Shown piece by piece: positions 1 through 54,679 of a stretch of 54,679 bases of DNA (its first letter is position 1; each line of letters starts with the position of its first letter). The position numbers and the translations under genes are program-made. The DNA comes from an uncultured Gammaproteobacteria bacterium. GTDB taxonomy: Bacteria; Patescibacteriota; Microgenomatia; Levybacterales; UBA12049. A model generated the notes under the pieces. The model did not search any database, was not told the origin of the DNA, and worked only from the letters and a program-made list of their open reading frames with translations. The DNA is taken from NCBI GenBank assembly GCA_964540925.1, contig CAZIOR010000002.1, positions 1 to 54,679 on the forward strand. The letters run 5' to 3'.

Positions 1-10
1 TCTTGAATTT

Positions 11-946
11 TCACTCTGATTTATATTTTATTATTTCGTCTAAGCTTTGAGAAGTTTTATTTTTTTCTGATAAATTAATAATTAAATCAGCAGTAAATCC
101 AGCAAATAAAATTTGTAAACCAGCAAGAACCAAGAGCATTCCGAAGGTTAAAAGTGGTCTCGTACCAATAGATTGACCTAAGAAATGCAACAGAGTTAAA
201 TAGAAAAGAATAAAAAACCCAATAACACTAATTGCCCCACCTGCCATACCAAAAAAGTGCAATGGTCTTTTAGCATATTTTGTTAAAAACAAGATGGTGA
301 ACATGTCAGGCACATCTTTAAAAACTTTAGAAAAACCGTACTTGGATTTACCAAACTTCCTTGGTTCATGTATAACAGGTATTTCTGTTACCTCAAATCC
401 TTTTTCAGAAACTAAAAGCGGAATAAACCTGTGCATTCCACCATATAAATTAAGGCCCTTTGCAGCATCTTTTGTATATAATTTAAGTCCACAGTTATAA
501 TCATGTAGATGTACTCCCCAAAAAGCAGACATCATGAAGTTAAACAGTTTTGAAGGAAGCTTCATGTAAATAGCGTCTTTTCTATTTTTTCTCCAACCTG
601 AAACTAACTCAAACCCTTCTTTAGACTTATTTAATAAATTAACTATTTCCTCAGGCCTATCTTGCAAATCCGCGTCTAAAGTGACTATGTAGTCTCCTTT
701 TGCCATCTTAAAACCATAAGTTAAAGCCTCAGCTTTTCCTTGATTTTTCCTAAATGAAAAAATTCTAACTTTTTTATCTTCTTTATTTAGATTTTTAAGT
801 ATCTCTAAAGACCTATCTGAAGAACCATCATCAATAAAAATGATTTCATAATCCTTATCAATATCTTTTAATGCAGCCACTAAACGGGGATAAAATTTTT
901 CAAGACTTTCCTGCTCATTCATTACAGGAACTACTGCTGAAATCAT
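11..946 (-). CDS. GT2 polyprenyl-phosphate glycosyltransferase, GtrB/ArnC/DPM1-like, with two C-terminal TM helices
   Basis: 311-aa ORF with an ATG start. N-terminal ISAVVPVMNEQ...IFIDDGSSD fold. DADLQDRPEEI and SGWRKNRKD motifs are typical of DPM1/GtrB/ArnC-type enzymes. Two hydrophobic helices lie near the C-terminus (FFGMAGGAISVIGFFILFYL, LLTFGMLLVLAGLQILFAGF). Confidence 0.85.
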   Translation of the reverse strand: MISAVVPVMNEQESLEKFYPRLVAALKDIDKDYEIIFIDDGSSDRSLEILKNLNKEDKKVRIFSFRKNQGKAEALTYGFKMAKGDYIVTLDADLQDRPEEIVNLLNKSKEGFELVSGWRKNRKDAIYMKLPSKLFNFMMSAFWGVHLHDYNCGLKLYTKDAAKGLNLYGGMHRFIPLLVSEKGFEVTEIPVIHEPRKFGKSKYGFSKVFKDVPDMFTILFLTKYAKRPLHFFGMAGGAISVIGFFILFYLTLLHFLGQSIGTRPLLTFGMLLVLAGLQILFAGFTADLIINLSEKNKTSQSLDEIIKYKSE

Positions 947-952
947 AATTGT

Positions 953-961
953 ATTATAGCA
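953..961 (-). promoter_or_regulatory. Extended -10 promoter (TGcTATAAT) 6 nt upstream of the ATG at 946; predicts a leaderless mRNA
   Basis: The minus strand reads TGCTATAAT-ACAATT-ATG. There is no good -35 (ATTAAT at 17-nt spacing), but the TGn extension is present. Confidence 0.5.
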
Positions 962-1002
962 TTTACCAAGGCAAAATTAATAATAGAAATTTATTTTAAG
1001 AG

Positions 1003-1011
1003 TGTTATAAT
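1003..1011 (+). promoter_or_regulatory. Extended -10 promoter (TGtTATAAT) for the methyltransferase/YfhO-like pair
   Basis: The plus strand reads TGTTATAAT at 1003-1011, 13 nt before the ATG at 1025. A GGGTGA Shine-Dalgarno-like element lies at 1015-1020. The -35 is poor (ATAGAA). Confidence 0.35.
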
Positions 1012-1024
1012 ACTGGGTGAATTT

Positions 1025-1747
1025 ATGCTCTTATATCCTATTAAATATTTTTGGGACAGAAAAATTGTTCCAGGATTTAAAATAAAAAAGAATGATCTAG
1101 TCTTGGACATTGGATCTGGAGACAAGCCTTTCTGGAGAGGAAATGTATTTCTAGACAACTTAGAGCTCAAAAACCTACATAGACACACTGATACCCAAAC
1201 TATTAAAGATTTGGGATTGTTTGTTAATGGAGATATTACTAAAACAAAATTTAAGAATAAAGCTTTTGATTTCTCTTTCTGCACTCACCTATTAGAACAT
1301 GTAGATAGGCCTGATTTGGCAATAAAGGAGATAACTCGAATCTCAAAAAAGGGCTATATTGAAGTCCCAAATGGCATAATTGAATTTATAAGCCCCTTTC
1401 ATAGTCACATTTGGTTTATATTATTTGACGGAAAGAAGTTAACTTTTGTTAGAAAAGGAAAAAAACTACACGAATCCTTACTCAGAAATGCAGTTAATTA
1501 CCAAAATATTATTCCAAACCTAAAAAACCCTTTTATTAGATTATATTGGAAAAATAAAATTGAATACGAAATAATCGATTTAGAAAAAGAATCTGATAAG
1601 TATTTCCCACCTGAAACTACTCCCAAAACAAATAAAAACAAATCTTTATTAATATTAAGCACATATTTCTATATGACTTTAGTAAAAATATTAAGAATAA
1701 TTTACTCAGTAAACAATAAAGTTGAACTAAAGAAGATATCTAAATGA
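1025..1747 (+). CDS. Class I SAM-dependent methyltransferase with a C-terminal hydrophobic helix
   Basis: VLDIGSGDKP (motif I) and FDFSFCTHLLEHVDRPDLAIKEITRISKKGYIEVPN (Methyltransf_11-like). Hydrophobic tail LLILSTYFYMTLVKILRII. The stop overlaps the next ATG (ATGA at 1744-1747). Confidence 0.75.
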   Translation: MLLYPIKYFWDRKIVPGFKIKKNDLVLDIGSGDKPFWRGNVFLDNLELKNLHRHTDTQTIKDLGLFVNGDITKTKFKNKAFDFSFCTHLLEHVDRPDLAIKEITRISKKGYIEVPNGIIEFISPFHSHIWFILFDGKKLTFVRKGKKLHESLLRNAVNYQNIIPNLKNPFIRLYWKNKIEYEIIDLEKESDKYFPPETTPKTNKNKSLLILSTYFYMTLVKILRIIYSVNNKVELKKISK

Positions 1748-3633
1748 AAATAAAACTTATTTTGCTATTTATAGCTGCGAGTTTTATAATTTTATTTCAA
1801 TTCCTAAAATCACCAGATATAATCATAAAAAATGATCTTAATGGTAATATTGTTCCCCTGCAATACTTCAAAGAATCAATTACAAAAAACCACACTTTTC
1901 CCTTATGGAATCCTTATATTAATCAAGGCATACCGACAACTGCAGATCCTTTATATGGAATATATAATCCCATCATTTCCATACCAATCTTATTGTTTGA
2001 ATATAAGGATGCAATTAAAATAATTTATTTTGTTTCAATTCTACTAGCCATGATTACGATGTACTTATTGGTAAAAGAATACAAAATTAGAGATAGCATA
2101 TCTATTTTAATAGCTATTAACTATTGTTCTGGAACATATTTAATTTCAAAAATTACAGCTGGGCATTTAGAAAAGATCGTATCATTTGCATTCATGCCTC
2201 TTTTAATCCTTACAGTAATTAAATTAATACGCAGAAAAAAATTAAAATGGGCGGGCACTGTTGGCTTAATTTTATCTTTAATTTTATTTACAGGAGACAT
2301 TTATAATGCACTTTATTCATTGTATACGCTGCTAGCTATCTTAGTGTTTTATTTATTTAAGGATAAAAAAATTAGTCTTTTAATATTTATAAGTATAATT
2401 TCATTCTTACTTTTTTCCAGCATAAAGCTTTTTCCAATGATAGAACTCCAACAATATATAACTAAAATTAAAGAACCTTTTGTAGGTAATTTAAACTTTC
2501 TGTCAATTTTCTACTATTTATTCTTTCCGTTTAGTAGTTTCTATAAGACTTTTTTACCTACTGAGAATTTCCTCTCTAATGCATTTGGCTGGTGGGAAAA
2601 TTTTGCTTTTATAGGTCCGTTTTCGTTTTTAGGATTAGTTTATTTATTTACTAATAAGATTTCTAAATACAAGACTGAAAAAAAATTATTTATCTTATTA
2701 ATCGTTTTGTTCACCTTGATGTCCATGCCAGGAGAAAATTTAAATCCCTTAAAATTTATAATCTCAAATTTTAGCATCCTTCAATATTTCCATGTGCCGA
2801 GTAGAATATTGCTTTTATTTAGCATTGTGGTCTTATTATTTTTTGGCCTATATGCAGAAAAATTACATAATAAAAAATATATATTCTTCTTACTTTTAAT
2901 TAATTTAGTAATTACATTTTGTTTTTCACAATATATATTTAATAAAAACCAATTTGATAAATTAGATAAAAATTATTCAACTGTACTTAAACATATTAAG
3001 CAAAATAATCTAAATAATTACCCCACTGTTCATTATAATTCACAAGGAGACTTACCTCAGGACATAGCGTTAAATAATAAAATCTTATTACTTCAATCTA
3101 ATTACGGGTTATTTTTAAAAGGTAGCTTAGGTGAAAAATATAATTTTAAAGGTAATAATACTTATCAAGATATTTTACCCGGACTCATCATATCGGATTC
3201 GAAAATAGAACTTAAAAATTATGCATTAGAAAAGAACTTTAATAAAATATATCTATATAAAAATACAAATACTTTATCATTTGCTACCTTTGATAATAAA
3301 CCAACATCTTTTACTTTAAAACCCAACTCAATAATTATTAATGTTAATTCCAATAAACCAGGTATATTAAAACTTCTTGAAAGTAACTATCCTGGCTGGA
3401 AAGTATTTAAGAATGGACAGGAAATAAATTTGGAAAAAAGCAGATTTTTAACAATAACTACATCTCCAGGAGAAAATAAATACGAGTTTAAATTTATTTC
3501 TAAAAGCTTTTACTTAGGGTTAGCAATTTCCTTTATTAGCTTAATCTTATTTATTGCTTATCTAGCAAAAGTAAATAAGTTATTTCTTTACCTTAATAAC
3601 CGCCGCATTATAAGTAAAAAATGGTTTCAGTAA
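1744..3633 (+). CDS. YfhO-like GT-C-type polytopic membrane protein
   Basis: 629 aa with many TM helices. N-terminal loop PLWNPYINQGIPTTADPLYGIYNP resembles the YfhO signature. The C-terminal ectodomain carries SNYPGWKVFKNGQEI and is followed by a terminal TM helix. Confidence 0.6.
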   Translation: MKIKLILLFIAASFIILFQFLKSPDIIIKNDLNGNIVPLQYFKESITKNHTFPLWNPYINQGIPTTADPLYGIYNPIISIPILLFEYKDAIKIIYFVSILLAMITMYLLVKEYKIRDSISILIAINYCSGTYLISKITAGHLEKIVSFAFMPLLILTVIKLIRRKKLKWAGTVGLILSLILFTGDIYNALYSLYTLLAILVFYLFKDKKISLLIFISIISFLLFSSIKLFPMIELQQYITKIKEPFVGNLNFLSIFYYLFFPFSSFYKTFLPTENFLSNAFGWWENFAFIGPFSFLGLVYLFTNKISKYKTEKKLFILLIVLFTLMSMPGENLNPLKFIISNFSILQYFHVPSRILLLFSIVVLLFFGLYAEKLHNKKYIFFLLLINLVITFCFSQYIFNKNQFDKLDKNYSTVLKHIKQNNLNNYPTVHYNSQGDLPQDIALNNKILLLQSNYGLFLKGSLGEKYNFKGNNTYQDILPGLIISDSKIELKNYALEKNFNKIYLYKNTNTLSFATFDNKPTSFTLKPNSIIINVNSNKPGILKLLESNYPGWKVFKNGQEINLEKSRFLTITTSPGENKYEFKFISKSFYLGLAISFISLILFIAYLAKVNKLFLYLNNRRIISKKWFQ

Positions 3634-4230
3634 ATCCACTTTATTTGTTAATCTTTGGAAAAGTAAAACAAATCTATACATTTTTTCATTCAAAAAGAAA
3701 GGCGGATAAGCATCAAAATGCTTAAAATTAGCATTTGGAAAGTATTTTAATATTTTTTGTTTAAATTCATTTTGAGTAAAATGCTGATGATTCTTTAATT
3801 TAGTCACCAAAAAATAAAATAAAGGGTTATATCTATTTCCCTCTAAAATAACAACTGTTGCACCTTTTGCAGACACTCTTCTTACCTCTTCTAATGTTTT
3901 ATCTACATTGTCTACATGATGTAAAAGATCTTTCATATAAACAGCATTAAACTGATTTGTTTTAAAAGGTAATTTTTCTGAATATGTCTTAATAAATTTT
4001 ATCTTCTTACTTTTTATACTTAGCCATGATTTATAAGATATTGCATCTGCCGCAATAACAGTTTTTGCAAATTTAGCAAACTCAACACTATCTAGCGCGA
4101 AACCACAACCTAAATCTAGTAAGTTTTTATTTGAAAACAATCTAACAATTCCTAATTTTTTAAAATAATCCTCTCTAAAAATTGCTGATGGCTTACCAAA
4201 AACATCTCCGTAACTAAACTTTACTTTCAT
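3580..4230 (-). CDS. Class I SAM-dependent methyltransferase
   Basis: LLDLGCGFALDSVEF (motif I), FNAVYMKDLLHHVDNVDKTLEEVRRVSAKGATVVILE. The 3' end overlaps the convergent gene 1744..3633 by 54 nt. Confidence 0.8.
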   Translation of the reverse strand: MKVKFSYGDVFGKPSAIFREDYFKKLGIVRLFSNKNLLDLGCGFALDSVEFAKFAKTVIAADAISYKSWLSIKSKKIKFIKTYSEKLPFKTNQFNAVYMKDLLHHVDNVDKTLEEVRRVSAKGATVVILEGNRYNPLFYFLVTKLKNHQHFTQNEFKQKILKYFPNANFKHFDAYPPFFLNEKMYRFVLLFQRLTNKVDLLKPFFTYNAAVIKVKK

Positions 4231-5989
4231 AATAAAATAAACATAAATAAATAAAAATAAAAATTATCAAAGAAGCTAAGCTAACTATTGATCCAATCAA
4301 AAATTGAGTATTTGTATCTGAATCAATAGCTTGAGTCACAACATTATTACTGTAATGATTAATTTCATAAATTTTTAAACCACCAAAGCTTCTTACAACT
4401 TTTAAATCTGGTATTTTACTTATTAAATTACTCGTCTTTAAATATTCGTTGTGATCATATTTTCTATCTTTAATAAATATTTCTCCCCTATTATCAACTG
4501 GAATAATAATATATTGAACTGAATTGTTGGCCAAATCTTTTAGTTCTGTAGTATTTAATTTACCTACAATTGCCGATGCAGTACTAATTTTAAAATATTG
4601 ATCAGCGGCAACAGCGGGATGCATAGGAGACTGATATGAAAATCTTGAAGGGTGAGGAATCCATAAAGTTCTAGAAAAATTGTTTTGATTACTCATGAAT
4701 TTATCAAATTGAGTATATTCTGCGGGAACAACTGATTTTTGTAATGTACCCGGTAATTTACCTAAATATCCTGGAAGCATTAAGTAAATAAAATAAATCA
4801 TAAAAATTACAGGCAATACTTGGAATATTTTTTTAATCGTACTTAGCTTATATAATGCATAAGGAATCAACACCGAGAATGCTACAGCTGTTAACATGTA
4901 CCATTTTGTTGAATCTCTAAACAGAATAAAACCAGGAACATGGCTAAACATAAATAAATAAGCCGCTCCAAAAATTTCATTTGCACCTTTTCCCAAAAAT
5001 ATTCCCAATAAAGCGACTATTGAGAATAAGATGACATAAAATTTTTCTTTTTTTTCTTTAGTAAGTAATAAAGAACTAAATGCTAAGAGAGGAAGTAGTA
5101 AAAATTCAGGTCTTTGAAAATATATTTTCCCAAAAATATTCTCTGGCCAATTTGGATGAAGAAGACTAAATGAGTTTTCAAATGTTGCAAAGCTAAAAAA
5201 CTTAACTGATTCTAAAGAGGTATATGCATCGCCTAGACTGTTGAATGCGCTAACCCCAGTAAATAATGAAGGAAATATCCAAAATATATTTAAAAATATA
5301 TCTACAAAGATAGGAAATATAAATCCATAAATTATTAATTTATAATCAAATAATTTCTTTGTGGTTATTGTATTCAAAAGGTAAATAATTACCATTATCC
5401 AACCAGTCATATATGTAACTCTCATGTCCAATAGAGTTTGGAGACTTAAGATAAAACCTAGGGAAAGAGATAAGAATAATAATTTTCTAGCTTTTTCTTG
5501 AATTAACAATAAAATTAAGATAATTAAAGGAATTAGTCCATAAGCTATTCCAATCAATACTAATCCTCCAGAAACTAGCATTAAGATATAACTATTTAAA
5601 ACAAAAACTAATGGAGCAATAAAATATATTTTATTATCTGGGAATATTTTTCTAATCAAAGCGATAATCGATACAGTGGAGATTATTAGGAATGGAAACA
5701 GAATAAAAACTCTTTCTAAAAATTCCCAAGGAAGATTAAATATTTTTCCAAAACTTAAAGGAATTGCCATAATGAAATTTACTGCAGAATATAAAATTGA
5801 ACTTCCTCCAAAACCATTATTTGCCCCAAAAAACAAAGCATTCGGAATTAACGTGTGATTATTAAACATTGAAGGGAAAAAATACCATAAATCCCCACCG
5901 GTAATCACTCCTGGTAAAAACCAACTTTTATAAACCCATAATACAGACAATATAAAAAATCCAAATAATAATTTATTTATTTTTTCCAT
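4214..5989 (-). CDS. Polytopic membrane protein, GT-C-like; paralog of 6973..9294 (possibly AftD/DUF3367-like)
   Basis: 591 aa. Shares with 6973..9294 the motifs ITGGDLWYF / ISGDDTRLYY, VPGFILFRDSTKW / VPGFVMFRNFYDKF and PAEYTQFDKFMS / PNEYLDFMS. It has a C-terminal ectodomain plus a terminal TM helix. Confidence 0.5.
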   Translation of the reverse strand: MEKINKLLFGFFILSVLWVYKSWFLPGVITGGDLWYFFPSMFNNHTLIPNALFFGANNGFGGSSILYSAVNFIMAIPLSFGKIFNLPWEFLERVFILFPFLIISTVSIIALIRKIFPDNKIYFIAPLVFVLNSYILMLVSGGLVLIGIAYGLIPLIILILLLIQEKARKLLFLSLSLGFILSLQTLLDMRVTYMTGWIMVIIYLLNTITTKKLFDYKLIIYGFIFPIFVDIFLNIFWIFPSLFTGVSAFNSLGDAYTSLESVKFFSFATFENSFSLLHPNWPENIFGKIYFQRPEFLLLPLLAFSSLLLTKEKKEKFYVILFSIVALLGIFLGKGANEIFGAAYLFMFSHVPGFILFRDSTKWYMLTAVAFSVLIPYALYKLSTIKKIFQVLPVIFMIYFIYLMLPGYLGKLPGTLQKSVVPAEYTQFDKFMSNQNNFSRTLWIPHPSRFSYQSPMHPAVAADQYFKISTASAIVGKLNTTELKDLANNSVQYIIIPVDNRGEIFIKDRKYDHNEYLKTSNLISKIPDLKVVRSFGGLKIYEINHYSNNVVTQAIDSDTNTQFLIGSIVSLASLIIFIFIYLCLFYYESKV

Positions 5990-6989
5990 TATTAAAATTC
6001 CTTATTACATCTAGGTAATTAATTTTATCTTTTGGTTTTTTAGAGAAATCTAATATCAATTGCACTGCACTAATTATTAATATAAAGAATATATAGATAC
6101 TTAATTTATCTAATGCCGGGTCTAGCTTAGAATAACTCATAATCACCAATGCAGTAAACATTAAAATTATATTGATTAAAATACTCACGGAATAATCAAA
6201 TTTATACATAACTACATTAAATATCCAAAAGCCTAATAAGATAAATAATATGCCGGAATTATATTCAACAAAAAATACTGAATCAATAAGAATTAATGCT
6301 ACAGCTAAATATGCTAAATATTGTCTTTTAAATTTAAATTTACGATTTAATTTAATGATTAAAAAATAAAAAAATAAAGGCAAAAAGAAAATAATAGATG
6401 ATAGCAAGAAATCTATATTGATTAAATGTAAATAAATTTTAGTTACAAAGAATTTAACTGTTTTTATTGGACTGGATAAAATTTCTTGTTTTGAATATTT
6501 ATATACCAATGTTACTACGGGCTCATTATTACTAATCATTACTGAGTTTGTTTTCTTACCATCCTCAGATTTTATTTCAAATTCATAAATTTTACCTGCA
6601 GAATTTTCCTGCAACGGAAAGCCAAATGGCAATACAAATGATTTATCAAATTCGCTGATTGGATAAGTGGATGAATATGCAAAATTAGAATTTTTTTCTT
6701 TTATGGAAAAATACAGTCGATCATTTCCATTGTAATTTATTCCTCTATATTTATTAAACTTAACTTGTAAAATCCCTAGATTATTTTTTAAAGCAATAAA
6801 TTCACCTTTAACCGTATCACCCTTTACCATGAAATCTTGTGGAAAATGTTTTATAACATTTTTACTTAATGGATAAACTAATGCTGATACACTGTGAGAA
6901 TTAAATACAATCGCACCAATAAAGCAGACAAAAAACAAAAACAAAGGAATTAACCAATAAATGACAAGTTTGTTATTTTTTATTTTCAT
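5973..6989 (-). CDS. Membrane protein of unknown function (N-terminal TM, beta-rich ectodomain, C-terminal multi-TM block)
   Basis: I start it at the ATG at 6989 (MKIKNNKLVIYWLIPLFLFF). The longer track ORF starting at 7061 would overlap the upstream gene by 89 nt. I recognise no family motif. Confidence 0.5.
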   Translation of the reverse strand: MKIKNNKLVIYWLIPLFLFFVCFIGAIVFNSHSVSALVYPLSKNVIKHFPQDFMVKGDTVKGEFIALKNNLGILQVKFNKYRGINYNGNDRLYFSIKEKNSNFAYSSTYPISEFDKSFVLPFGFPLQENSAGKIYEFEIKSEDGKKTNSVMISNNEPVVTLVYKYSKQEILSSPIKTVKFFVTKIYLHLINIDFLLSSIIFFLPLFFYFLIIKLNRKFKFKRQYLAYLAVALILIDSVFFVEYNSGILFILLGFWIFNVVMYKFDYSVSILINIILMFTALVIMSYSKLDPALDKLSIYIFFILIISAVQLILDFSKKPKDKINYLDVIRNFNNGKNK

Positions 6990-44982: not shown

Positions 44983-45011
44983 AGTTTACAGGAATAAATA
45001 AGTTTATTCAA
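44983..45011 (-). promoter_or_regulatory. Candidate promoter TTGAAT-17-TAAACT (22-nt leader) with an inverted repeat across the -35 and spacer
   Basis: The minus strand reads TTGAAT (45011-45006), a 17-nt spacer, then TAAACT (44988-44983). The inverted repeat GAATAAA-taag-TTTATTC lies at 44992-45009. Confidence 0.3.
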
Positions 45012-45065
45012 ATATTCGTCTGATACTTTATTTTATAGTTAATTTCATATACTATTAAGCTAACA

Positions 45066-46736: not shown

Positions 46737-49074
46737 TTGGATAAAATCTCCATTTTTTATCTTTACGCTAATTGTTTTATTTTTCTTCTTTAAATTTTTT
46801 GTATTAGGTAAAATACCACTAGCTACTGATCTTCTAATTTCCGAATATAATCCTTGGAAACAATATTCTTTTTTAGGCTATAATCCAGGAAGTTTTCCCT
46901 CAAAGTTTCAGTACGGAGATGTAATTCACCAATTGTACCCTTGGAAAACATTCACCATCGATTCACTGAAGAATTTTACTATTCCCCTATGGAATCCTTA
47001 TAATTTTTCTGGCCATCCATTTTTAGCTGATATCCAATCAGCAGTATTCCAACCATTAAATCTTTTGTACTTAATACTAGCACAGCCAATTGCTTGGGGA
47101 CTCACAGTTGCGCTGCAACCTTTTATAGCTTTAATAGGAACTTATTTGTTTGCAAAGAAAATTGGACTTAAAAAAGAAACAGCAATTTTTTCTTCAATTG
47201 GTTACGCATTTTCTTTATATATGTCAACTTTCCTTGAGTACAATACGATGGGACATGTAATTGCAGTTTTACCAATTACTCTTTATGGAGTTGAGCTAAT
47301 ACTAGAGAAAAATAAATTTAAAGGAGTTTTAATTTTCTCTCTTTCAATTGCATATGCGATATTCGCAGGACACATTCAACTTGCAGGATTTAATATTCTA
47401 TTTACAATTATTTATTCTCTGTTTAGATTAAGCAGTATTAAAGAAAAATTTAAAAACAGCTTATTACTTTTTATAACTTTTATTACTTCCCTGCTAATTG
47501 CTTCCATTCAGCTTCTTCCTACTCTTGAATTACTTAACCTAGCTGCCAGAGCAAATCAAAACTATCAATTCTTAATAGAAAAATTATTATTACAACCTTT
47601 TCAATCTATACTTTTTTTCTCCCCAGATTTTTTTGGAAATCCTGCTACAGGAAATTACAAAATATTAGATTCTTATCCTGGGAATTCAATTTACATTGGT
47701 TTAGCAACTATTTTATTTGCCATCAGCTCCATCACATTAATTAGAAAAAATATATTTATTAAATTCTTTGTATTTGTCTCAACGTTATTCATAATTTTAT
47801 TTTTCAGAAACCCATTATCAGAACTATTTTTCAAAATTAATATTCCTTTTTTCTCAACTGGATCGCCCACTAATGCGATTTATCTATTAAGTTTTAGCAT
47901 TTCTATTCTTGCAGGGTTTGGTATTGAAAATATAAAAAACAAAAATAAAATATTAATTTTAATTTCTCTTTCAATCATAGCCTACCTCAGCATAAACACA
48001 ATTATTTTTAAAGATTTAGTGAATATGAAAAATGTATTATTGTCTCTTTTATTATCAATCGGATTACTTGTTCTTTTGATAATTAATTATTTTCAAAAAC
48101 TTAAACATTCCTTACTAATATTAATTTTTTGTTTAATTACAATTGCTGACCTATTCTTTTATTTTCAAAAGTTTAATTCTTTTGTTCCTAAAGAATTGGT
48201 TTTCCCAGATACAAAAATATTTAGCTATATAAAAGAAAACTCTGGAATAAACAGAGTTTGGGGTTATCAAGAAGCAATTCTTGAACCAAATTTTAATACA
48301 CAATTTAATATATATTCAGCTGAAGGAACAGATCCACTTTATCCTAAAGCTTACGGACAACTTATCACCGCTTCGCATAATGGTCAAATCAGCAAGGATT
48401 TTTCAAATCTAAATAGATCAGATGCGATTATCTCTCAGCGCAATATAGGCTTTACTAACCCCTATAGAGAAAAAATCCTACAGCTAACTGGAACAAAATA
48501 TATTTTAGATGTTAAAAACAGTACACCTGATAACTTCCCTATTAAAGAATATAATATTACTTACGAAGAAGACTTATGGAGAGTTATTAAAGACTCAAAG
48601 GCAGCAGACAGAATATTTTTTGCTAAAAAATTGAATTACTATTCAACCTCCGAAGATTTTGCTAAAAAATTCTTTAACCCAAACTTTAATCCACAACAAG
48701 ATATATTAGTAGAAAATAATGCATATTCTAAAGATTATTTAAATCAAATTGATAACAATGCGATAATTAAACTTGTAAATTATTCACCAAATAAAATAAT
48801 AATTGATACCAAAAGCAACACTAATCAAATCCTATTTATTTCAGATACATATTATCCAGGTTGGAAGGCTACTATTGATAATAAAAACACAAAGATAATA
48901 AAAACTAATTTTACCTTTAGATCAATTGCTATACCTAAAGGCCAACATAGAGTAGTAATGTCCTATGAGCCAGATTCATTTAAACTTGGTTTTTATCTTT
49001 CTCTCTTAGGATTTGCAGGGTTATTTATTTTATGTATACTTTACATTAGAGATGAATATCTTAAAAAGAACTAA
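46726..49074 (+). CDS. YfhO-family GT-C-type membrane glycosyltransferase
   Basis: LWNPYNFSGHPFLADIQSAVFQPLNLLYL; C-terminal TYYPGWKATIDNKNTKI plus a terminal TM helix. Confidence 0.8.
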   Translation: MRSNWIKSPFFIFTLIVLFFFFKFFVLGKIPLATDLLISEYNPWKQYSFLGYNPGSFPSKFQYGDVIHQLYPWKTFTIDSLKNFTIPLWNPYNFSGHPFLADIQSAVFQPLNLLYLILAQPIAWGLTVALQPFIALIGTYLFAKKIGLKKETAIFSSIGYAFSLYMSTFLEYNTMGHVIAVLPITLYGVELILEKNKFKGVLIFSLSIAYAIFAGHIQLAGFNILFTIIYSLFRLSSIKEKFKNSLLLFITFITSLLIASIQLLPTLELLNLAARANQNYQFLIEKLLLQPFQSILFFSPDFFGNPATGNYKILDSYPGNSIYIGLATILFAISSITLIRKNIFIKFFVFVSTLFIILFFRNPLSELFFKINIPFFSTGSPTNAIYLLSFSISILAGFGIENIKNKNKILILISLSIIAYLSINTIIFKDLVNMKNVLLSLLLSIGLLVLLIINYFQKLKHSLLILIFCLITIADLFFYFQKFNSFVPKELVFPDTKIFSYIKENSGINRVWGYQEAILEPNFNTQFNIYSAEGTDPLYPKAYGQLITASHNGQISKDFSNLNRSDAIISQRNIGFTNPYREKILQLTGTKYILDVKNSTPDNFPIKEYNITYEEDLWRVIKDSKAADRIFFAKKLNYYSTSEDFAKKFFNPNFNPQQDILVENNAYSKDYLNQIDNNAIIKLVNYSPNKIIIDTKSNTNQILFISDTYYPGWKATIDNKNTKIIKTNFTFRSIAIPKGQHRVVMSYEPDSFKLGFYLSLLGFAGLFILCILYIRDEYLKKN

Positions 49075-50758
49075 TTTATTATTTATTGTTTTTACGATTC
49101 TTATTTTAGGAATAGGATTATTTTTCAGATTTTACAAATTAGACACTATTCCACCAGGACTTTACCAAGATGAAACTGCAATAGGATACAACGCCTACTC
49201 AATTCTTAAAACTGGAGCAGATGAGTATGGCAAAAGTTTTCCTTTATATTTTAAATCTTTTGGAGACTACAAGTTACCGGTTTATATCTATTCAACAATT
49301 CCATCTATAGCCCTATTCGGGCTAAACGCATTTGCAGTCAGATTTCCTTCTGCCTTGTTTGGATTCCTAACTCTTCCCATAGTTGGTCTTTTAATGCTTA
49401 GATTTACTAAAAATAAATATTTTGCACTACTTTCCATGGGGCTTTTATCCATACTTCCTTGGCATTTGCATTATAATCGTGCAACCTTTGAAGTTAGTAT
49501 TTCACTTTTCTTATTTACCCTAGGACTTTATCTTTTACACAAAGCGTTTTTAGATCAAAAACCAAAAGGCTTATTTTTATTAGGAACCCTTTCTTTTATA
49601 TTGGGACTTTATACATATAATTTAACAAGATTACTTGCTCCATTAATTTACATTTTGATTTTAGTCTTCTTCAGAAAAAAAATTAGCCAAGTAAATAAAA
49701 CAGAAATAATAATCACATCTGTAACAGGATTTGTTTTTCTTATTCCTCTTGTATTAACACTTTTTCAAAATGGAGGCTCCTCTTCTGCATCTGGAACTCT
49801 CATTTTTTCAAGCGCTGCAGTACAAGCTCCTTTTCTTGAATTTAGATCTTTTCTAGTTAATACTCACATTCCACTAGTAAGCATTCTTTTTAATAAAATA
49901 TTTATGACTAGTTGGCAATATTTAAATAATATTGCCGCCTATTTCTCGGTCGACTTCTTTTTCTTAAAAGGATCTTTACATGGTAATCATGGTATTGGCA
50001 ATTTTGGTGAATTTTACTTAATACAACTTCCCTTTCTTATCTATGGCTTAATTACGATAATTAGGAAAAAACTTGAATGGGGATACTTACTAATTGGCTG
50101 GGCAATATTAACTATTTTAACCGCTGCCTTAACTAGAGATGTTCCCCATGCTACACGAAGCTTTTTCTTAATTCTTCCATGCGTTGGATTCATAACCCTA
50201 GGTATTGTTGAGGCATATAATTTTTTAAAGACTCAAAATAAATCATTACAATATTTGGTTGTTTTTATAGTTATTGCACTCTCAATATATAACGTTATTT
50301 ATTATTTTAGCTCTTACTATTTTAGATTCCCTATTATTTACGCAAAAGCTTGGAGTTATTCAGATAAAGAATTAGTTAACTATATAAAACCCATGATAAA
50401 CAGTTATGATCAAATCATTGTTGATACTAGTGGGCCAAAATATACATCGTTTCTTTTTTATCTAGGATATCCTCCTGAAAATTTTCAAGTAACCTCAGCA
50501 AGAGCTCGTGACGACTCAGAAGGATTTAGTGAAGTAAAATCTTTTGGTAGTTTTCAATTTAGAGACATTGATTGGAATAATGATTTAAATTTACCAAATA
50601 CTTTAATAATAGTAGGCGCAGATAAGGTACCTCCAACAGCTAAAGTAATTAAGACATTTACATTACCAGAAAGACCAGTTGTTTTATCAAAAGGACAAGA
50701 GATACTTAGCTTCCCAACTACTGACATAAACTACGCATTAATTGAAACTTCAAAGTAA
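49052..50758 (+). CDS. GT39/ArnT-like GT-C glycosyltransferase (paralog family A)
   Basis: PPGLYQDETAIGYNAYSILKTGADEYGKSFPLYFKSFGDYKLPVYIY, RFPSALFG, VPHATRS. The track start at 49013 is a TTG; I use the ATG at 49052 (MNILKRTNLLFIVF). Confidence 0.75.
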   Translation: MNILKRTNLLFIVFTILILGIGLFFRFYKLDTIPPGLYQDETAIGYNAYSILKTGADEYGKSFPLYFKSFGDYKLPVYIYSTIPSIALFGLNAFAVRFPSALFGFLTLPIVGLLMLRFTKNKYFALLSMGLLSILPWHLHYNRATFEVSISLFLFTLGLYLLHKAFLDQKPKGLFLLGTLSFILGLYTYNLTRLLAPLIYILILVFFRKKISQVNKTEIIITSVTGFVFLIPLVLTLFQNGGSSSASGTLIFSSAAVQAPFLEFRSFLVNTHIPLVSILFNKIFMTSWQYLNNIAAYFSVDFFFLKGSLHGNHGIGNFGEFYLIQLPFLIYGLITIIRKKLEWGYLLIGWAILTILTAALTRDVPHATRSFFLILPCVGFITLGIVEAYNFLKTQNKSLQYLVVFIVIALSIYNVIYYFSSYYFRFPIIYAKAWSYSDKELVNYIKPMINSYDQIIVDTSGPKYTSFLFYLGYPPENFQVTSARARDDSEGFSEVKSFGSFQFRDIDWNNDLNLPNTLIIVGADKVPPTAKVIKTFTLPERPVVLSKGQEILSFPTTDINYALIETSK

Positions 50759-50759
50759 C

Positions 50760-52283
50760 TTATTGAGGAATAACTTTATAAAGCTGGTAGTAAAAATCCG
50801 TATTTCCTTGTCTAACCTGAAAAACTAATTTTAAAGGATATTTAGGTGTATTTTCTCTGTTTGCATCTTGATAGAAAACAAAATATGTTGGCATTTCTTT
50901 TGCCATTTCCAAAACTTCCTGAGGAAATTTATCTACAGGCCAGTAACCTTTGACCATGATGTTTTTATTTTTTACCAAGTACATCTCAAGCCCTGCGGGC
51001 ATTAAGCCAAATGTCCCTTCGGTTGCAACAAAAATCTTACCATTTTGCGCTTGTTGTTTAAAGTAATTTACGCTTTCTTTAAGCCCCCACCCTGCAGCCC
51101 AACTATTAATATATTGATTGTTATCTGCCTTAGCTATCCTTGAGTTAACGGGATCAACTGCAAATTGTAAAGATACAAAGGCTGAATAAATTACAAATAA
51201 AGTTACTAAACTTACAGTCAAAATTATATTTGATTTATTAAACCTTACTTTCTTTTCAATGAAATCAATTAAATAATTAAGTCCGTATGCGCAAAGTGGC
51301 AAAAGCATTACGGTCATGAAAAATATAAAACGAGGAAAAATTACTTTTCCAAAAAGCGCCAGGGCAAGAAAAGGAAGCAGGAAATAAACTGTTAAAATAA
51401 TTTTTTCTTTAAAATATTTAAAGATTGTTAGATACGCAATAGCAAGAAGAATTAAATAAGGAAGTTTTAAATACTGCACAAACCAACTAACTAACCCATT
51501 GAAATTCCCTACGAAAAAGGTAAACGGATGCATTAGCCATTCTGAAAATGGATAAACAAAAACAGCATTCTTTGCTTGAATCATTTGAAATAAAGGAGAA
51601 AGTCTTAAAAGATTGTACATTCCATAAGCAATGACAACTGAAAAACCCAGATACAAAACTGTTTTAATAAGTCTTTGAATAGAATTTTTTTCCTTGAAAT
51701 TAATTAAAATAAGAAGAATTGGTAAAAGATAAATATTAAAAAAGTTTGTAGACTTTGTAAGTACTCCTGCTCCAATTAATATTCCAAGAGTATAGGCTAA
51801 ATCAATTCTCAACTTTCTAACCAAAAGCACTGAAAAATAGACAGACCAGGTAAAGAAAGCCGCTACCAAGCTATCATATAAAGCCATTCTGTCTAATACT
51901 TGAGCGAAAGGATAAAATACATAAAGTATGGAAGACATAAAAGCAATTTTCTTACTCTTAAATAGCTCATATGTTAAAAACCATAATCCAATTAATGTAA
52001 ACAGGCCACTTACTACAGATACTAACCTACCTGCAATTAAAGGATCTGTAACAAGTTTTAGAAAAAACATTGCAAACCAAACATACATTGGCTGCTTGCC
52101 ATCTGTTAAAGAAATAAATCTCCAAGAAGAATCCTGCAAAGCAATTTGCGACCATCTAATATAGATTGCCTCATCTGTAAAAAGAGGCATACGATCAAGA
52201 AAAATAAGTCTAAGTAAAAAATAAATAATACCTATACCTAGAAAAAGTGCGATTTCTTTTTTGTACTTTAAAAATAACTGCAT
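50760..52283 (-). CDS. ArnT/PMT_2-like GT-C glycosyltransferase
   Basis: 507 aa, polytopic. The first loop DRMPLFTDEAIYIRWSQIAL (DEA.Y motif) resembles ArnT-type enzymes. C-terminal soluble domain. Confidence 0.7.
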   Translation of the reverse strand: MQLFLKYKKEIALFLGIGIIYFLLRLIFLDRMPLFTDEAIYIRWSQIALQDSSWRFISLTDGKQPMYVWFAMFFLKLVTDPLIAGRLVSVVSGLFTLIGLWFLTYELFKSKKIAFMSSILYVFYPFAQVLDRMALYDSLVAAFFTWSVYFSVLLVRKLRIDLAYTLGILIGAGVLTKSTNFFNIYLLPILLILINFKEKNSIQRLIKTVLYLGFSVVIAYGMYNLLRLSPLFQMIQAKNAVFVYPFSEWLMHPFTFFVGNFNGLVSWFVQYLKLPYLILLAIAYLTIFKYFKEKIILTVYFLLPFLALALFGKVIFPRFIFFMTVMLLPLCAYGLNYLIDFIEKKVRFNKSNIILTVSLVTLFVIYSAFVSLQFAVDPVNSRIAKADNNQYINSWAAGWGLKESVNYFKQQAQNGKIFVATEGTFGLMPAGLEMYLVKNKNIMVKGYWPVDKFPQEVLEMAKEMPTYFVFYQDANRENTPKYPLKLVFQVRQGNTDFYYQLYKVIPQ

Positions 52284-52289
52284 AAAAAA

Positions 52290-52318
52290 ATTATATTAAA
52301 ATCTAACTACTTGATCAA
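52290..52318 (-). promoter_or_regulatory. Candidate internal promoter TTGATC-17-TATAAT, 6 nt before the ATG at 52283
   Basis: The minus strand reads TTGATC (52318-52313), a 17-nt spacer, TATAAT (52295-52290), TTTTTT, then ATG. The -35 lies in the 3' end of the upstream gene. Confidence 0.45.
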
Positions 52319-53482
52319 TCTTGTCTTTACAAAACATGAGATAGTCAAAATAACCAACGCGCCTAATCCATATAATTCAATTTGCCCAATAAGCTCAGGA
52401 TAACCAATCGAATAATCAGTCAAAAGAACATATGCAATGTAAATAATTGAACATATTATTGAAGAAACGAGCACAGGAATAAAAACATAATATTTTCTAG
52501 AAACAAAAGCAGCTAAAGAAAATGGAAACATTAAGTACCATGGTTGAAACGTTGTCCTGTAGCTTGCAAATATTATTGCAGACAAGCTAATTACCGCAGA
52601 TATTAAAAACACATATTCATAATTAATATTCTTTTTAAGTCGTTCATAAACAAAAAGACCAAGAAAAACAGGAATTAAAATGACAGATGCATATTTAATA
52701 CCTATTGAGAAAAAAAGTGATAAAAAAGATCCAATTTTTCTTTTCTTAAAATAAAGATAAAATGCCAAAAGAGCAAAAAATATTAAAGGAAAATCATTAT
52801 GGACAGAAACTAAACCCTCAAATAAAACTAAAGGATTTAAGGCAAAAAAGAGTGTATTAAAAACTTTGTCTTTAGGAAAAATAATCTCAGAAATTTTATA
52901 AATTAAATAACAACTCCCTAAAAATGTTAAAGCAATAAGTCCTTTAAAAAGAAAGAAATTAACTATGAATATATTTAAGGACACAAATGATAATGGCAAA
53001 GTTAAAATTAACCAGCTTGGTCCATATGGATAAAATCTATGTGTCCATCTCATAAAATTAAGCATTGGATCCCCAGTGAAATCTATTGGAGCATGAAAAT
53101 ATGGATTTTGATGATAAAAAGTAATTATCTTTGCGTCAAAAATATAATTAAATAAATCATACGAAAATGCGTTATAAGAAAGTCCTAGAATTATAACGAC
53201 AATCGGAATTATTAATTTTAAATGAAAGTACTTAATCACTCCCTTTCTGGAAAGATATAAAAATAGTAGATAATAAATAAAAAGAATGGCTGTGATAATT
53301 CCAAAGATTGCCGCTGACAAAGGTCTTTGGAAAAATCCAATATTTTGCATGAATTTCTCAGCTGTTTGAAAAATAGAACTCTGTGAGAAAGTTAAACTTA
53401 AATCAACTTGGGTGAATGTATAGAGAAACAAAGCAACAATTACTGCTATGTAGCTTAAAATAAGCAGTTTAATTTTTGTCAT
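52307..53482 (-). CDS. Polytopic membrane protein, possibly DUF2029/GT87-like GT-C glycosyltransferase
   Basis: 391 aa, about 11 TM helices. The loop SYDLFNYIFDAKIITFYHQNPYFHAPIDF...RFYPYGPSW resembles the D..Y...G.nPY...YpP pattern of PimE/DUF2029 proteins. This assignment is weak. Confidence 0.4.
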   Translation of the reverse strand: MTKIKLLILSYIAVIVALFLYTFTQVDLSLTFSQSSIFQTAEKFMQNIGFFQRPLSAAIFGIITAILFIYYLLFLYLSRKGVIKYFHLKLIIPIVVIILGLSYNAFSYDLFNYIFDAKIITFYHQNPYFHAPIDFTGDPMLNFMRWTHRFYPYGPSWLILTLPLSFVSLNIFIVNFFLFKGLIALTFLGSCYLIYKISEIIFPKDKVFNTLFFALNPLVLFEGLVSVHNDFPLIFFALLAFYLYFKKRKIGSFLSLFFSIGIKYASVILIPVFLGLFVYERLKKNINYEYVFLISAVISLSAIIFASYRTTFQPWYLMFPFSLAAFVSRKYYVFIPVLVSSIICSIIYIAYVLLTDYSIGYPELIGQIELYGLGALVILTISCFVKTRLIK

Positions 53483-54237
53483 AAATTCTTATATTTACCT
53501 GAGAGTTCGTTAAGTCTAATTCTAACTAAATCTTCTAATGCTTCTACTGAATCTTTGATAGGACTCACTCTTCTAGTTTCTACATATAACCAATTTACTC
53601 CTACTTCTTTAATCTTATATCCTCTCTTGGCGGCTAAAAACAAAAGCTCAACATCAAAACCTGCTTTTACTGATGATCCAGAAATTTGCTTATACCCATG
53701 ATGGAATTTTTCTAATTTAGAAAAAAGATCATAAGCTACGTTTTTCTTAAATAGTTTAAAACCACACTGAGTGTCATTTAATCCAGAAAGACCTACTATT
53801 AGAGATCTTAACATTATCATTCCCTTTGCCATTAATGTTCTGGTCCAGGGAGCACCTTTTCGGATTGAACTTCGACTACCAATAACAATGTCGTAATTTT
53901 TAGTAAATTCTAATAATTTCTCTACTTCTTCTATTGGAGTTGCTTGATCCATATCAGTAAAAAGAACCCACTGTCCCTTTGATTCCAAAATTCCCTTTGT
54001 TACAGCTCCAGCCTTGCCACTGTGTGTTCCGTGAACTAATCTAAAATTTTTATCTTCTTTAATAAATTTCTCAACAAATTCAAAGCTTCCATCATTTGAT
54101 CCATCATCAACGACAATAACTTCAAAAGAATATTTTTGTTTAGATAAATAATGGGCAACCTTATCTAAAACGCCCTTTTGCAGGTTGCTCATCTCATTAT
54201 ATGAGGGAATTACTACGGATAAGAAAATTGTATCCAC
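53479..54237 (-). CDS. GT2 glycosyltransferase, dolichyl/polyprenyl-phosphate beta-glucosyltransferase (Alg5/DPG-synthase)-like
   Basis: LSVVIPSYNEMSNL...EVIVVDDGSNDGS, FTDMDQATPIEEV, VIGSRSS, DTQCGFKLFKK. GTG start (plus-strand cac at 54235-54237), the first start codon after an in-frame stop. Confidence 0.8.
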   Translation of the reverse strand: MDTIFLSVVIPSYNEMSNLQKGVLDKVAHYLSKQKYSFEVIVVDDGSNDGSFEFVEKFIKEDKNFRLVHGTHSGKAGAVTKGILESKGQWVLFTDMDQATPIEEVEKLLEFTKNYDIVIGSRSSIRKGAPWTRTLMAKGMIMLRSLIVGLSGLNDTQCGFKLFKKNVAYDLFSKLEKFHHGYKQISGSSVKAGFDVELLFLAAKRGYKIKEVGVNWLYVETRRVSPIKDSVEALEDLVRIRLNELSGKYKNL

Positions 54238-54243
54238 GAATAG

Positions 54244-54272
54244 ATTATAGCTGAAAAATAAAGGGTAAACAA
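54244..54272 (-). promoter_or_regulatory. Promoter TTGTTT-17-TATAAT, 6 nt before the GTG at 54237
   Basis: The minus strand reads TTGTTT (54272-54267), a 17-nt spacer, TATAAT (54249-54244), CTATTC, then GTG. Confidence 0.5.
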
Positions 54273-54276
54273 ATAT

Positions 54277-54305
54277 TTGTCTATGAGCTCATTTTAAGGT
54301 AAAAT
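54277..54305 (+). promoter_or_regulatory. Promoter TTGTCT-17-TAAAAT for tRNA-Glu
   Basis: The plus strand reads TTGTCT (54277-54282), a 17-nt spacer, then TAAAAT (54300-54305), 9 nt before tRNA position 1. Confidence 0.5.
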
Positions 54306-54314
54306 ATACACCAT

Positions 54315-54388
54315 GCCGCCATCGTCTAGTGGCCTAGGACGTCGGATTCTCATTCCGAAAATCAGGGGTTCAACTCCCCTTGGCGGTA
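54315..54388 (+). tRNA. tRNA-Glu (anticodon CUC)
   Basis: Hand-folded cloverleaf. Acceptor GCCGCCA/TGGCGGT (G1-U72 wobble). D arm GTCT-AGTGGCCTA-GGAC. Anticodon arm TCGGA-TTCTCAT-TCCGA with CTC at positions 34-36. 5-nt variable loop. T arm AGGGG-TTCAACT-CCCCT. Discriminator A, no encoded CCA. Confidence 0.9.
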
Positions 54389-54679
54389 CTAAAAAATATT
54401 AAATAGAGGATAGATCTTCCACAGGCTTGTAATATATATACAATTAAATAACACTCCTACAACAATAAACAATAAATCGTTCTTAGATAACTTTGGTGAA
54501 AGTGAAGGAATAAGAATAAGTAGTAAGAATGGTAAAAAATCCAATACATACCTATACCCATATTGAGAAAAGCCAATACTATAATAAACTAGAACTGGAA
54601 TAAGCAAGGCAACTACAGTAGCAACTGCTGACAAGGAATAAATTCCTTTCCTAAAATTAAATAATAGTTTTAAAAATAA
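54389..54679 (-). CDS. 3' part of a membrane protein gene running off the right edge (probable GT-C C-terminus)
   Basis: The track start at 54634 is a TTG. The frame stays open through 54679 (LFLKLLFNFRKGIYS precedes it), so the gene is truncated by the window. The hydrophobic tail carries GFSQYGYRYVLDFLPFLLL, which resembles C-termini of ArnT-like proteins. Its stop codon abuts the tRNA 3' end. Confidence 0.5.
   Translation of the reverse strand, partial: LFLKLLFNFRKGIYSLSAVATVVALLIPVLVYYSIGFSQYGYRYVLDFLPFLLLILIPSLSPKLSKNDLLFIVVGVLFNCIYITSLWKIYPLFNIF

Follow-up and report, generated by a model that had tools for sequence, protein, structure and literature searches.

The stretch analysed here (hereafter the window) comprises 54,679 bp of contig CAZIOR010000002.1 (assembly GCA_964540925.1), with a G+C content (GC) of 25–32% throughout. 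ORF calling yielded 42 complete open reading frames (ORFs), one edge-truncated ORF and one tRNA gene, at a coding density of 98.8%. The window is given over almost entirely to glycan building, and its most numerous class is that of the polytopic GT-C-type glycosyltransferases (GTs), with 19 complete ORFs that together make up 11,139 codons or 61.6% of the bases. Alongside these are 12 GT2 modules, three GT4 enzymes, four methyltransferases, two MOP flippases, a GalE-like protein and an RmlD. Thirty-four consecutive genes (3580–45011) share the minus strand, their junctions overlapping or nearly abutting, and are followed by a divergent plus-strand arm of three genes (45066–50758) and by three further minus-strand genes. 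We consider it likely that the locus is a conserved cell-envelope glycosylation island that combines two glycan-building routes. Coordinates below refer to the window, and genes are on the minus strand unless marked (+).

Assignment of the 19 ORFs to the GT-C class rests on several kinds of comparison. Fourteen of them pass Pfam gathering scores (eight for PMT/PMT_2, three for YfhO and three for PTPS_related), while the other five were placed by a precomputed PF26314 match (one), by Foldseek (two) or by BLASTP or hhalign comparison with window paralogs (two). A hydropathy scan predicted 7–13 transmembrane (TM) segments in all 19, and every GT-C paralog has an acidic motif (DE, DD, GGDD or HDD) after TM1, 25–45 residues from the start, which would lie in the first extracytoplasmic loop if the loop orientation that we predict is correct. 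PMT, PMT_2, PTPS_related and GT87 are all members of the Pfam GT-C clan CL0111 (PMC7801869), and GT-C enzymes are known to be difficult to predict (PMC5836110). A first-pass annotation of the window had described a locus of this kind, nearly all glycan building and with GT-C proteins in the lead, counting 19 complete GT-C ORFs and one partial one over about 10,800 codons (roughly 60% of the window), together with the accessory set listed above, five of its GT2 modules being of the DPM1/GtrB type. Pfam, BLASTP, hhalign and Foldseek bore out this description, Pfam and NCBIfam reproduced each of the accessory counts, and our recomputed codon sum lies close to the earlier one; the 19 complete ORFs stand, and the partial ORF at the edge is a probable GT-C, as detailed below. 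That the polytopic ORFs encode transporters was rejected, the profile and structure searches agreeing on GT-C, and Foldseek matches of the two modelled proteins (described below) to major facilitator superfamily (MFS) proteins or G protein-coupled receptors (GPCR) ranking below all GT-C matches, with a probability <0.15.

The same locus, with the same gene order, occurs in a sister genome (GCA_964521295.1, contig CAZFRF010000001.1, 935,984 bp), where it extends over at least ~53 kb of the 936-kb contig. In BLASTN, DNA identity between the two is ~81% over window positions 16110–31134 and 40760–54393 and 66–72% toward 11–16 kb, and the sister orthologs are ~85% identical in protein. Recognisable orthologs are also found in the genome of a third locus, L001 (locus numbers denote the loci fetched for comparison), whose RmlD is 59% identical. 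Since the window is part of a contig assembled from a metagenome (60,049 bp), the cluster could in principle be a chimera or misassembly joining GT-C genes of several organisms, but the presence of the same locus in an independent assembly, with the same gene order at ~81% identity, excludes misassembly; moreover, pieces of the window are identical in independent Logan assemblies of other runs and GC is uniform, and the probability that we leave to an artefact is close to nil. Within the window, GT-C paralogs share just 24–34% pairwise identity in BLASTP, which led us to reject a recent tandem amplification. Set against the ~85% identity between orthologs, these low values indicate that the paralogs are old and have been maintained, which argues for distinct functions or specificities rather than for recent amplification.

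The sister locus contains an additional PMT_2-type gene (510 aa; L133 6819–8351), absent from the window and lying between the orthologs of 24293–25573 and 22650–24290, and GT-C content thus varies even between close relatives. This extra gene might be taken to mean that many of the paralogs form a variable ‘wardrobe’ of surface-glycan enzymes, not successive steps of one pathway but alternatives that are swapped or switched against phages or for different hosts. The fall in DNA similarity from ~81% to 66–72% toward 11–16 kb, the presence in the sister of what looks like a recombinase-bearing mobile element at the tRNA-Glu gene bordering the locus, and the differing numbers and mixes of GT-C families among related loci would all suit such a scheme. 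On the other hand, gene order and content are kept over more than 28 kb despite ~19% DNA divergence, the paralogs are ancient and intact, and invertible promoters, repeats or pseudogenes were not noticed, although no systematic search was made for them. We favour a conserved glycosylation island, and regard a switching repertoire as improbable.

PMT/ArnT-type proteins are the largest GT-C group, with the nine members counted in the first-pass annotation. Eight score above the Pfam gathering threshold of PMT_2 or PMT: 12701–14020 (439 aa; PMT_2 1.7e-13; 10 TM segments and an ‘FDEY’ first-loop motif), 18239–19414 (391 aa; PMT_2 3.9e-10), a tandem of three PMT_2/PMT-type genes at 24293–25573 (PMT_2 1.1e-8), 25570–27225 (2.8e-13) and 27206–28855 (6.2e-14), the last two with 34% identity to one another, 45066–46736 (+; PMT/PMT_2 in Pfam), 49013–50758 (+; PMT in Pfam) and 50760–52283 (507 aa; PMT_2 4.7e-14). 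The ninth, 20355–22637 (760 aa), is a fusion of an N-terminal GT2 module (Pfam GT2 4.8e-22) with a C-terminal PMT_2-like GT-C part that has 10 TM segments past residue 250. With 23.2 bits for PMT_2, this ORF falls just short of the 26.1-bit gathering cutoff, and it was the comparison of its C-terminal 520 aa with the profile of the window PMT_2 paralogs that secured its place in the group (hhalign 95.5%, E 1.4e-8). The fusion might couple the synthesis of a lipid-linked sugar with its transfer. Its GT2 part shares 39% identity with the stand-alone GT2 encoded at 38659–39576.

The cutoff for PMT itself (PF02366, 22.7 bits) is reached by four of these ORFs, 27206–28855 (38.5), 45066–46736 (36.6), 49013–50758 (34.0) and 50760–52283 (22.7), the others matching PMT_2 only at this level, and MIR and PMT_4TMC had no match in any window ORF (Pfam, E ≤1e-3). 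The PMT-type ORFs are thus better described, as far as their profile matches go, as PMT_2/ArnT-like than as canonical GT39. This bears on whether the island might serve mainly for protein O-glycosylation, its PMT/PMT_2-like enzymes, and possibly other GT-C proteins, placing sugars on Ser/Thr residues in secreted proteins (S-layer proteins, pilins or adhesins) and extending them, as in actinobacterial Pmt and the Streptococcus mutans Pgf system. Such a role would agree with PMT/PMT_2 matches in 9–10 ORFs, five of them with a match to the PMT model itself and four up to its cutoff, with the recurrence among the best GT2 matches of PgfS, which is GtrB-like and belongs to the Pgf protein-glycosylation system, and with a GalE-like epimerase, present as in Pgf. 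But neither a MIR domain nor any other canonical GT39 mark was found in the window ORFs, PMT_2 also includes ArnT-type lipid glycosyltransferases, the known relatives of the YfhO, MptA/B and AftD types act on polymers, and the window encodes no candidate glycoprotein substrate. We consider protein O-glycosylation unlikely as the main task of the locus, although glycosylated surface proteins (S-layer, pili) are a possible product of the envelope glycosylation island that we propose.

Three ORFs passed the Pfam gathering score for PTPS_related, as many as had been called of this type before: 22650–24290 (546 aa; 8.4e-12), 41734–43407 (2.2e-13) and 43404–45011 (7.8e-17). A single ORF, 52307–53482 (391 aa, 10 TM segments), belongs to the MptA/MptB family (GT87-like), in keeping with its earlier description as DUF2029/GT87-like: the identical protein carries a precomputed PF26314 MptA_B_family match (E ≤1e-5), as does the 85%-identical sister ortholog. 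This ORF gave no match in a second Pfam copy even with E up to 5; the PF26314 model appears to be absent from that copy, the two Pfam sources differing in version. At the right edge, 54392–54679 encodes the last 96 residues, at the C terminus, of a membrane protein whose full-length relatives have ~410 aa. Neither this edge ORF (E up to 5) nor ten of its full-length relatives had a match in Pfam. Its family profile, however, aligned in the core region with the window PMT_2 profile (hhalign 93.9%, E 1.5e-7), and it is probably a twentieth, PMT_2-like GT-C.

Four ORFs are YfhO-like, again in line with the first-pass count. Three score well above the 28.5-bit Pfam cutoff for YfhO (PF09586), namely 31054–33312 (752 aa; 13 TM segments; 1.2e-23, 84 bits), 34664–37135 (up to 823 aa; 1e-27, 97 bits) and 46726–49074 (+; 79 bits). 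The fourth, 1744–3633 (+; 629 aa, 9 TM segments), is divergent and has no Pfam match (E up to 5), and was assigned by its similarity to the three Pfam-YfhO paralogs (BLASTP E 3e-12, 2e-9 and 1e-8). Like the two AftD-like proteins described next (4214–5989 and 6973–9294), it does not reach the YfhO gathering threshold, and the kinship of all three to this family comes from BLASTP or profile comparison only. In the glycosylation of lipoteichoic acid, YfhO has been proposed as the extracellular GT-C, acting with a C55-P-sugar synthase (PMC5836110). The ORF 34664–37135, called from a TTG codon, overlaps the upstream GT2 gene 36993–37751 by 143 nt; this start is probably over-extended and the true one an internal ATG ~46 codons downstream.

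The remaining two GT-C ORFs, 4214–5989 (family A2, 591 aa) and 6973–9294 (family A1, 773 aa), had been labelled AftD/DUF3367-like, a label that held for their fold but not for their sequence. Neither has a DUF3367 match or any accepted Pfam match (E up to 5), a weak, sub-threshold TgpA_N match on 6973–9294 having been rejected as spurious TM similarity, and neither they nor their family profiles found AftD or any other meaningful PDB match by sequence, an outcome shared by the other unassigned ORFs searched in this way; it was structure comparison that gave PDB matches. Among the 108 homologs of family A1 none has a Pfam match, and the same is true of nearly all of the more than 454 homologs of A2. 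The few named A1 homologs are from Patescibacteria, with one Limnocylindrales-labelled exception, and over both families the names read ‘Patescibacteria group’ or ‘Levyibacteriota’, apart from two Limnocylindrales labels on a single contig. Profile comparison shows homology between A1 and A2 (hhalign 99.9%, E 3e-34) and also of these families to the window YfhO paralogs (hhalign 99.0%, E 3e-18, for 4214–5989), to which the two proteins are nearer in sequence than to AftD.

AlphaFold (AF2) models built from the family alignments were of high confidence, with a mean pLDDT of 90.0 for 6973–9294 and 88.2 for 4214–5989 and a pTM of 0.89, and consisted of a multi-helix core and a small C-terminal beta domain with a single final TM. 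In Foldseek searches of the PDB, AftD (6w98_A) was the best match of both models (6973–9294: E 1.5e-6, TMq 0.46; 4214–5989: E 2.8e-7, TMq 0.63), with STT3, DPY19, ArnT, AftA, PglB and AglB next and all of the top 19 being GT-C. Normalised to AftD, however, TM-scores were only 0.29–0.31 for the two models, and the C-terminal half of AftD (~1,300–1,400 aa), with its carbohydrate-binding modules and extra TMs, is absent from the 591- and 773-aa proteins. Judged by these models, A1 and A2 proteins are like the AftD N-terminal module in fold and are not members of the AftD family. The first-loop Asp occurs in a GGD(D) motif, with G37-D38 invariant and D39 nearly so in A1 and D33 invariant in A2.

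Family A2 also raises the question of whether a sizeable share of the GT-C-fold proteins could be scaffolds, flippases or lipid-delivery proteins rather than transferases, in the manner of MmpA or of Agl23-type ‘flippase activity-associated’ proteins. The 4214–5989 protein has a weak NCBIfam match to MmpA (4e-9), in keeping with its AftD-like fold, MmpA being a protein reported to be partly homologous to AftD's N-terminal part that is implicated in lipid transport and that, for all its kinship to AftD, has no recognised catalytic domain (PMC8698533). Similarly, 27206–28855 matches TIGR03663 (Agl23) with 1.5e-9, and the window ORFs of at least 100 aa include no GtrA-type flippase for lipid-phosphate monosaccharides, a job that some of these proteins might take over. 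Both matches, however, are far under their cutoffs (35.5 vs 210 bits for MmpA and 37.4 vs 126 for Agl23), and the acidic residue that catalytic GT-C enzymes typically have in the first loop shows no variation in A1 or A2, an acidic motif being present also in every window paralog. We therefore continue to treat the GT-C proteins of the island as transferases, and think it very unlikely that many of them are not.

Between the A2 and A1 genes lies 5973–7061, which encodes a membrane protein with an N-terminal TM, a ~170-aa extracytoplasmic domain and five C-terminal TMs. It had no match in Pfam (E up to 5) or NCBIfam, and the eight homologs detected are all without annotation. With only ~6 TM segments, a first loop devoid of an acidic motif and no match to any profile, this protein was rejected as a GT-C, and the first-pass annotation had not counted it as one either. 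Genes of its type adjoin A2 homologs in many related loci (L091 9001–10014, L115 8946–9986, L110 8902–9942, L003 15729–16823 and L004 15356–16447), directly upstream of the A2 gene in the window and in metagenomic loci and directly downstream in L002–L004. Far larger proteins (757–1,260 aa) incorporate this domain in some loci. The A2 gene and its 5973–7061-type neighbour look like a conserved two-gene module.

Among the GT2 modules, five group together in BLASTP and have polyprenyl- or dolichyl-phosphate sugar synthases (ArnC, PgfS, AglJ, PpgS and Dol-P-hexose transferase) as their top NCBIfam matches. The one at 11–946 is of the GtrB/ArnC type (Pfam Glycos_transf_2 8.8e-33; NCBIfam ArnC 9e-55 and PgfS 9e-40, near full length) and has two C-terminal TM helices (~238 and ~265), as in GtrB/ArnC. 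The other four are polyprenyl-phosphate sugar synthase-like: 15118–15858, of the soluble type (Pfam GT2; NCBIfam PgfS 3.5e-14, PpgS 2.9e-13), 29421–30131, AglJ/PpgS-like (Pfam GT2; NCBIfam AglJ 4.5e-38, PpgS 1.1e-16), 41021–41737 (NCBIfam ArnC 1.7e-21, PgfS 6.6e-21, PpgS 2.8e-13) and 53479–54237 (Pfam GT2 2.1e-26; NCBIfam PgfS 6e-18, ArnC 1e-12, Dol-P-hexose transferase 3e-11). The use by the GT-C proteins of a lipid-phosphate-linked donor at the outer face of the membrane is a prediction to which these five synthase-like GT2s lend indirect support only, and with which they would fit.

The other stand-alone GT2s are 10080–11006 (Pfam Glycos_transf_2 1.3e-38) and 11009–11860 (3e-26), both of an EpsD/WcaA-like cytoplasmic type by NCBIfam, 30128–31051 (Pfam GT2 2.9e-26), and three consecutive genes with Pfam GT2 matches at 36993–37751, 37751–38662 and 38659–39576, the middle one also with a rhamnosyltransferase subfamily match in NCBIfam (8e-17). 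GT4 enzymes are encoded at 14024–15121, 17193–18242 and 33309–34388 (Pfam Glycos_transf_1 4.4e-37, 1e-32 and 5.6e-14 respectively), and MOP/Wzx-type flippases at 15914–17200 (Polysacc_synt 8.4e-12; 12 TM segments) and 39580–41034 (Polysacc_synt_3 3.5e-46). Sugar supply is represented by RmlD, a dTDP-4-dehydrorhamnose reductase-like protein (11857–12711; RmlD_sub_bind 1.1e-71), and by a GalE-like NAD-dependent epimerase/dehydratase (19381–20358; Epimerase 1.8e-61). Three of the methyltransferases are S-adenosylmethionine (SAM)-dependent enzymes matching Methyltransf_11, at 1025–1747 (+; class I, 4.5e-9, with one TM segment, a C-terminal helix), 3580–4230 (2.5e-13) and 28834–29418 (4.2e-12), and the fourth (9287–10087) is of the FkbM family (Methyltransf_21 4.2e-11).

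In the following scheme, the families, folds, gene order and conservation in the sister are as described above, whereas the donors and acceptors used, the side of the membrane on which the enzymes act and what they make are our inference. ArnT, Pmt, MptA/B, Emb and Aft enzymes transfer sugars outside the membrane from lipid-phosphate donors. By analogy, in the dominant of the two routes, the five GtrB/ArnC/DPM1-type GT2s would load single sugars onto polyprenyl phosphate at the cytoplasmic face, the lipid-linked sugars would be flipped across the membrane, and ~20 diverged GT-C enzymes (9–10 PMT/ArnT-like, four YfhO, three PTPS_related, two AftD-like and one MptA/B-like) would transfer them one by one to acceptors at the outer face, which could be a wall glycopolymer, a lipoglycan or surface proteins, each enzyme probably being specific for a particular donor, acceptor or linkage. 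Five synthases for ~20 transferases suggest that few donor sugars are set in many positions or linkages. In the second route, of the Wzx type, seven cytoplasmic GT2s and three GT4s would assemble lipid-linked oligosaccharides from rhamnose-pathway and GalE-type sugars supplied with the help of RmlD and the GalE-like protein, the four SAM methyltransferases would methylate them in the cytoplasm, and export would fall to the two MOP/Wzx flippases. What results would most likely be a wall-associated glycopolymer or a lipoglycan, complex, branched and in part methylated. A bolder version, which we put forward only tentatively, is that Microgenomates-type Patescibacteria build a lineage-specific extracytoplasmic heteroglycan like mycobacterial lipoarabinomannan (LAM), or a heavily glycosylated surface layer, almost wholly by means of GT-C enzymes, with A1, A2 and 5973–7061 as a new polymerising module.

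Some of the data weigh against a two-route island. The NCBIfam matches of the GT2s are all under equivalog cutoffs, for which reason the identities of their sugars cannot be read from them. No initiating phosphoglycosyl transferase of the WecA/WbaP type (Glycos_transf_4, Bac_transf) was matched by Pfam in the window, nor were Wzy_C, an O-antigen polymerase/ligase, Wzz or LytR_cpsA_psr, all of which may be encoded elsewhere in the genome, and GtrA (PF04138) was unmatched among window ORFs of at least 100 aa. Lacking an initiating transferase, Wzy, ligase and GtrA, the pathway is therefore incomplete here. Finally, a GT-C fold alone is no proof of transferase activity, a caution to which the weak likeness of 4214–5989 to MmpA adds. 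STT3, a further family looked for in the window, had no Pfam match.

Each component of the locus is of a known kind. GtrA/GtrB/GtrC of enterobacteria and phages, CsbB-YfhO, and GtlA-GtlB of Firmicutes are three-component systems of extracytoplasmic glycosylation (PMC5836110). The window resembles GtrABC and CsbB-YfhO in pairing GtrB-like GT2s, of which it has five, with polytopic GT-C proteins, including three Pfam-YfhO proteins and one YfhO-like protein. But whereas those systems consist of one GT2, one GT-C and one GtrA flippase and decorate a polymer made elsewhere, in the window ~20 GT-C genes share five synthases, no GtrA was found and GT-C genes are the most numerous class. Another parallel is the synthesis of arabinogalactan and of lipomannan (LM) and LAM in mycobacteria and corynebacteria (EmbA/B/C, AftA-D, MptA/B/C, PimE and Ppm1), where many different GT-C enzymes extend a polymer outside the membrane from polyprenyl-phosphate sugars. 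With these pathways, the window has in common an MptA_B member, two proteins of AftD-like fold and a GT2-polytopic fusion, Ppm1 of Mycobacterium tuberculosis being a comparable fusion. Mycobacterial GT-C genes, however, are scattered across 4.4 Mb of genome and are not known to form clusters of more than a handful, unlike the 20 within 55 kb of a ~1-Mb genome here; genes of the decaprenyl-phosphate-arabinose pathway were not seen in the window, and its AftD-like proteins, in contrast to AftD itself, are without the C-terminal carbohydrate-binding half.

The Pgf system of Streptococcus mutans (PgfS, PgfM1, PgfE and PgfM2) and actinobacterial Pmt share with the window a GtrB-like GT2, PMT_2-type GT-C proteins and a GalE-like epimerase, but in Pgf the GT-C genes number two and the substrate, an adhesin, is known, whereas the window has further GT-C families and no evident substrate protein. 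The GT2, GT4, MOP/Wzx flippase, RmlD, GalE and methyltransferase genes, in turn, recall Wzx/Wzy loci for O-antigen, capsule or exopolysaccharide (EPS), from which the window differs in that searches of it detected neither an initiating phosphoglycosyl transferase nor Wzy, a ligase or a chain-length regulator, and in the GT-C share, 62% of the locus as against none to two genes. It is for their organisation that we could find no characterised counterpart: a single conserved locus, in a ~1-Mb genome, that brings together ~20 GT-C genes of six or seven sequence families and in which these outnumber the GT-A and GT-B enzymes. No description of GT-C enzymes or of GT-C-dense loci in the Candidate Phyla Radiation (CPR), Patescibacteria or Levybacteria was found in the literature searched, an absence that weighs little, most subscription journals lying outside its coverage.

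For comparison with related genomes, ORFs of the fetched loci were classed by phmmer with the window GT-C proteins as queries, a procedure whose counts are lower bounds because GT-C families unrepresented in the window are missed. The A2-anchored metagenomic and genomic loci of at least 15 kb (n=36) had 1–4 GT-C genes per ~20 kb, covering 9–51% of bases, and RmlD-anchored loci of at least 15 kb from other phyla had none. Each 20-kb sub-window of the window, by comparison, holds 4–8 complete GT-C genes, a density matched by the sister. Small GT-C clusters are common in the lineage, and the window locus is an extreme case.

As to the lineage, the first-pass annotation had called the gene families CPR/Patescibacteria-like, which agrees with the ‘Patescibacteria group’ and ‘Levyibacteriota’ names of the homologs. 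The nearest RmlD relatives (58–63% identity) are from a Candidatus Levybacteria metagenome-assembled genome (MAG; 58%) and three low-GC MAGs titled ‘uncultured Gammaproteobacteria’. These three (L001, L003 and L004; CAZFNO010000001.1, CAZDOJ010000001.1 and CAZCYO010000001.1) have a GC of 32–33% and a Patescibacteria-type gene content, L001 being partly syntenic. In view of homolog names and composition, we judge their Gammaproteobacteria titles to be probable taxonomic mislabels. The source of the window is itself probably a member of the Microgenomates/Levybacteria-related Patescibacteria, to go by homology and composition.

Patescibacteria (CPR) make up a large share of bacterial diversity, have ~1-Mb genomes and are regarded as dependent on other cells; to our knowledge, the chemistry of their envelopes is essentially unknown. 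For a genome of the size of the sister's 936-kb contig, the ~54 kb of the locus would be ~6%, the sizeable fraction of a small genome that had been anticipated, and this figure, for a conserved locus with 62% of its bases in GT-C genes, implies that much is invested, under strong selection, in an extracytoplasmic glycan. If the LAM-like heteroglycan suggested above does exist, it would be a major unrecognised envelope component of ultra-small bacteria and might aid host attachment or phage evasion. The locus offers a concrete target for glycomics, cryo-electron tomography (cryo-ET) and enrichment-culture work, and its 19 complete and one partial GT-C sequences from six or seven families can be used for studies of specificity. 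A1 and A2, with hundreds of members and no Pfam model, are candidates for addition to Pfam or CAZy, the edge-ORF family and the 5973–7061 partner being likewise without a Pfam model, and GT-C gene density is a possible marker of envelope-glycan islands in metagenomes.

Two features of the layout concern the limits of the gene block. The sole non-coding gap of more than 151 nt in the window, at 34389–34663 (275 nt), is the only sizeable one within the 41-kb co-directional block, lies just downstream of the YfhO gene 34664–37135 and may harbour an internal promoter or terminator. At the right end, synteny with the sister stops at a tRNA-Glu(CTC) gene (54315–54389, +; ARAGORN, and Rfam tRNA with 61.6 bits), BLASTN similarity ending at 54393. 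Past this tRNA, the sister (L050 2390–7968) has what looks like an integrated mobile element, made up of genes for a large serine recombinase (overlapping the tRNA with its 3′ end), for a TraG/VirD4-like ATPase and for a Replic_Relax protein, while the window instead continues with a further GT-C-like gene.

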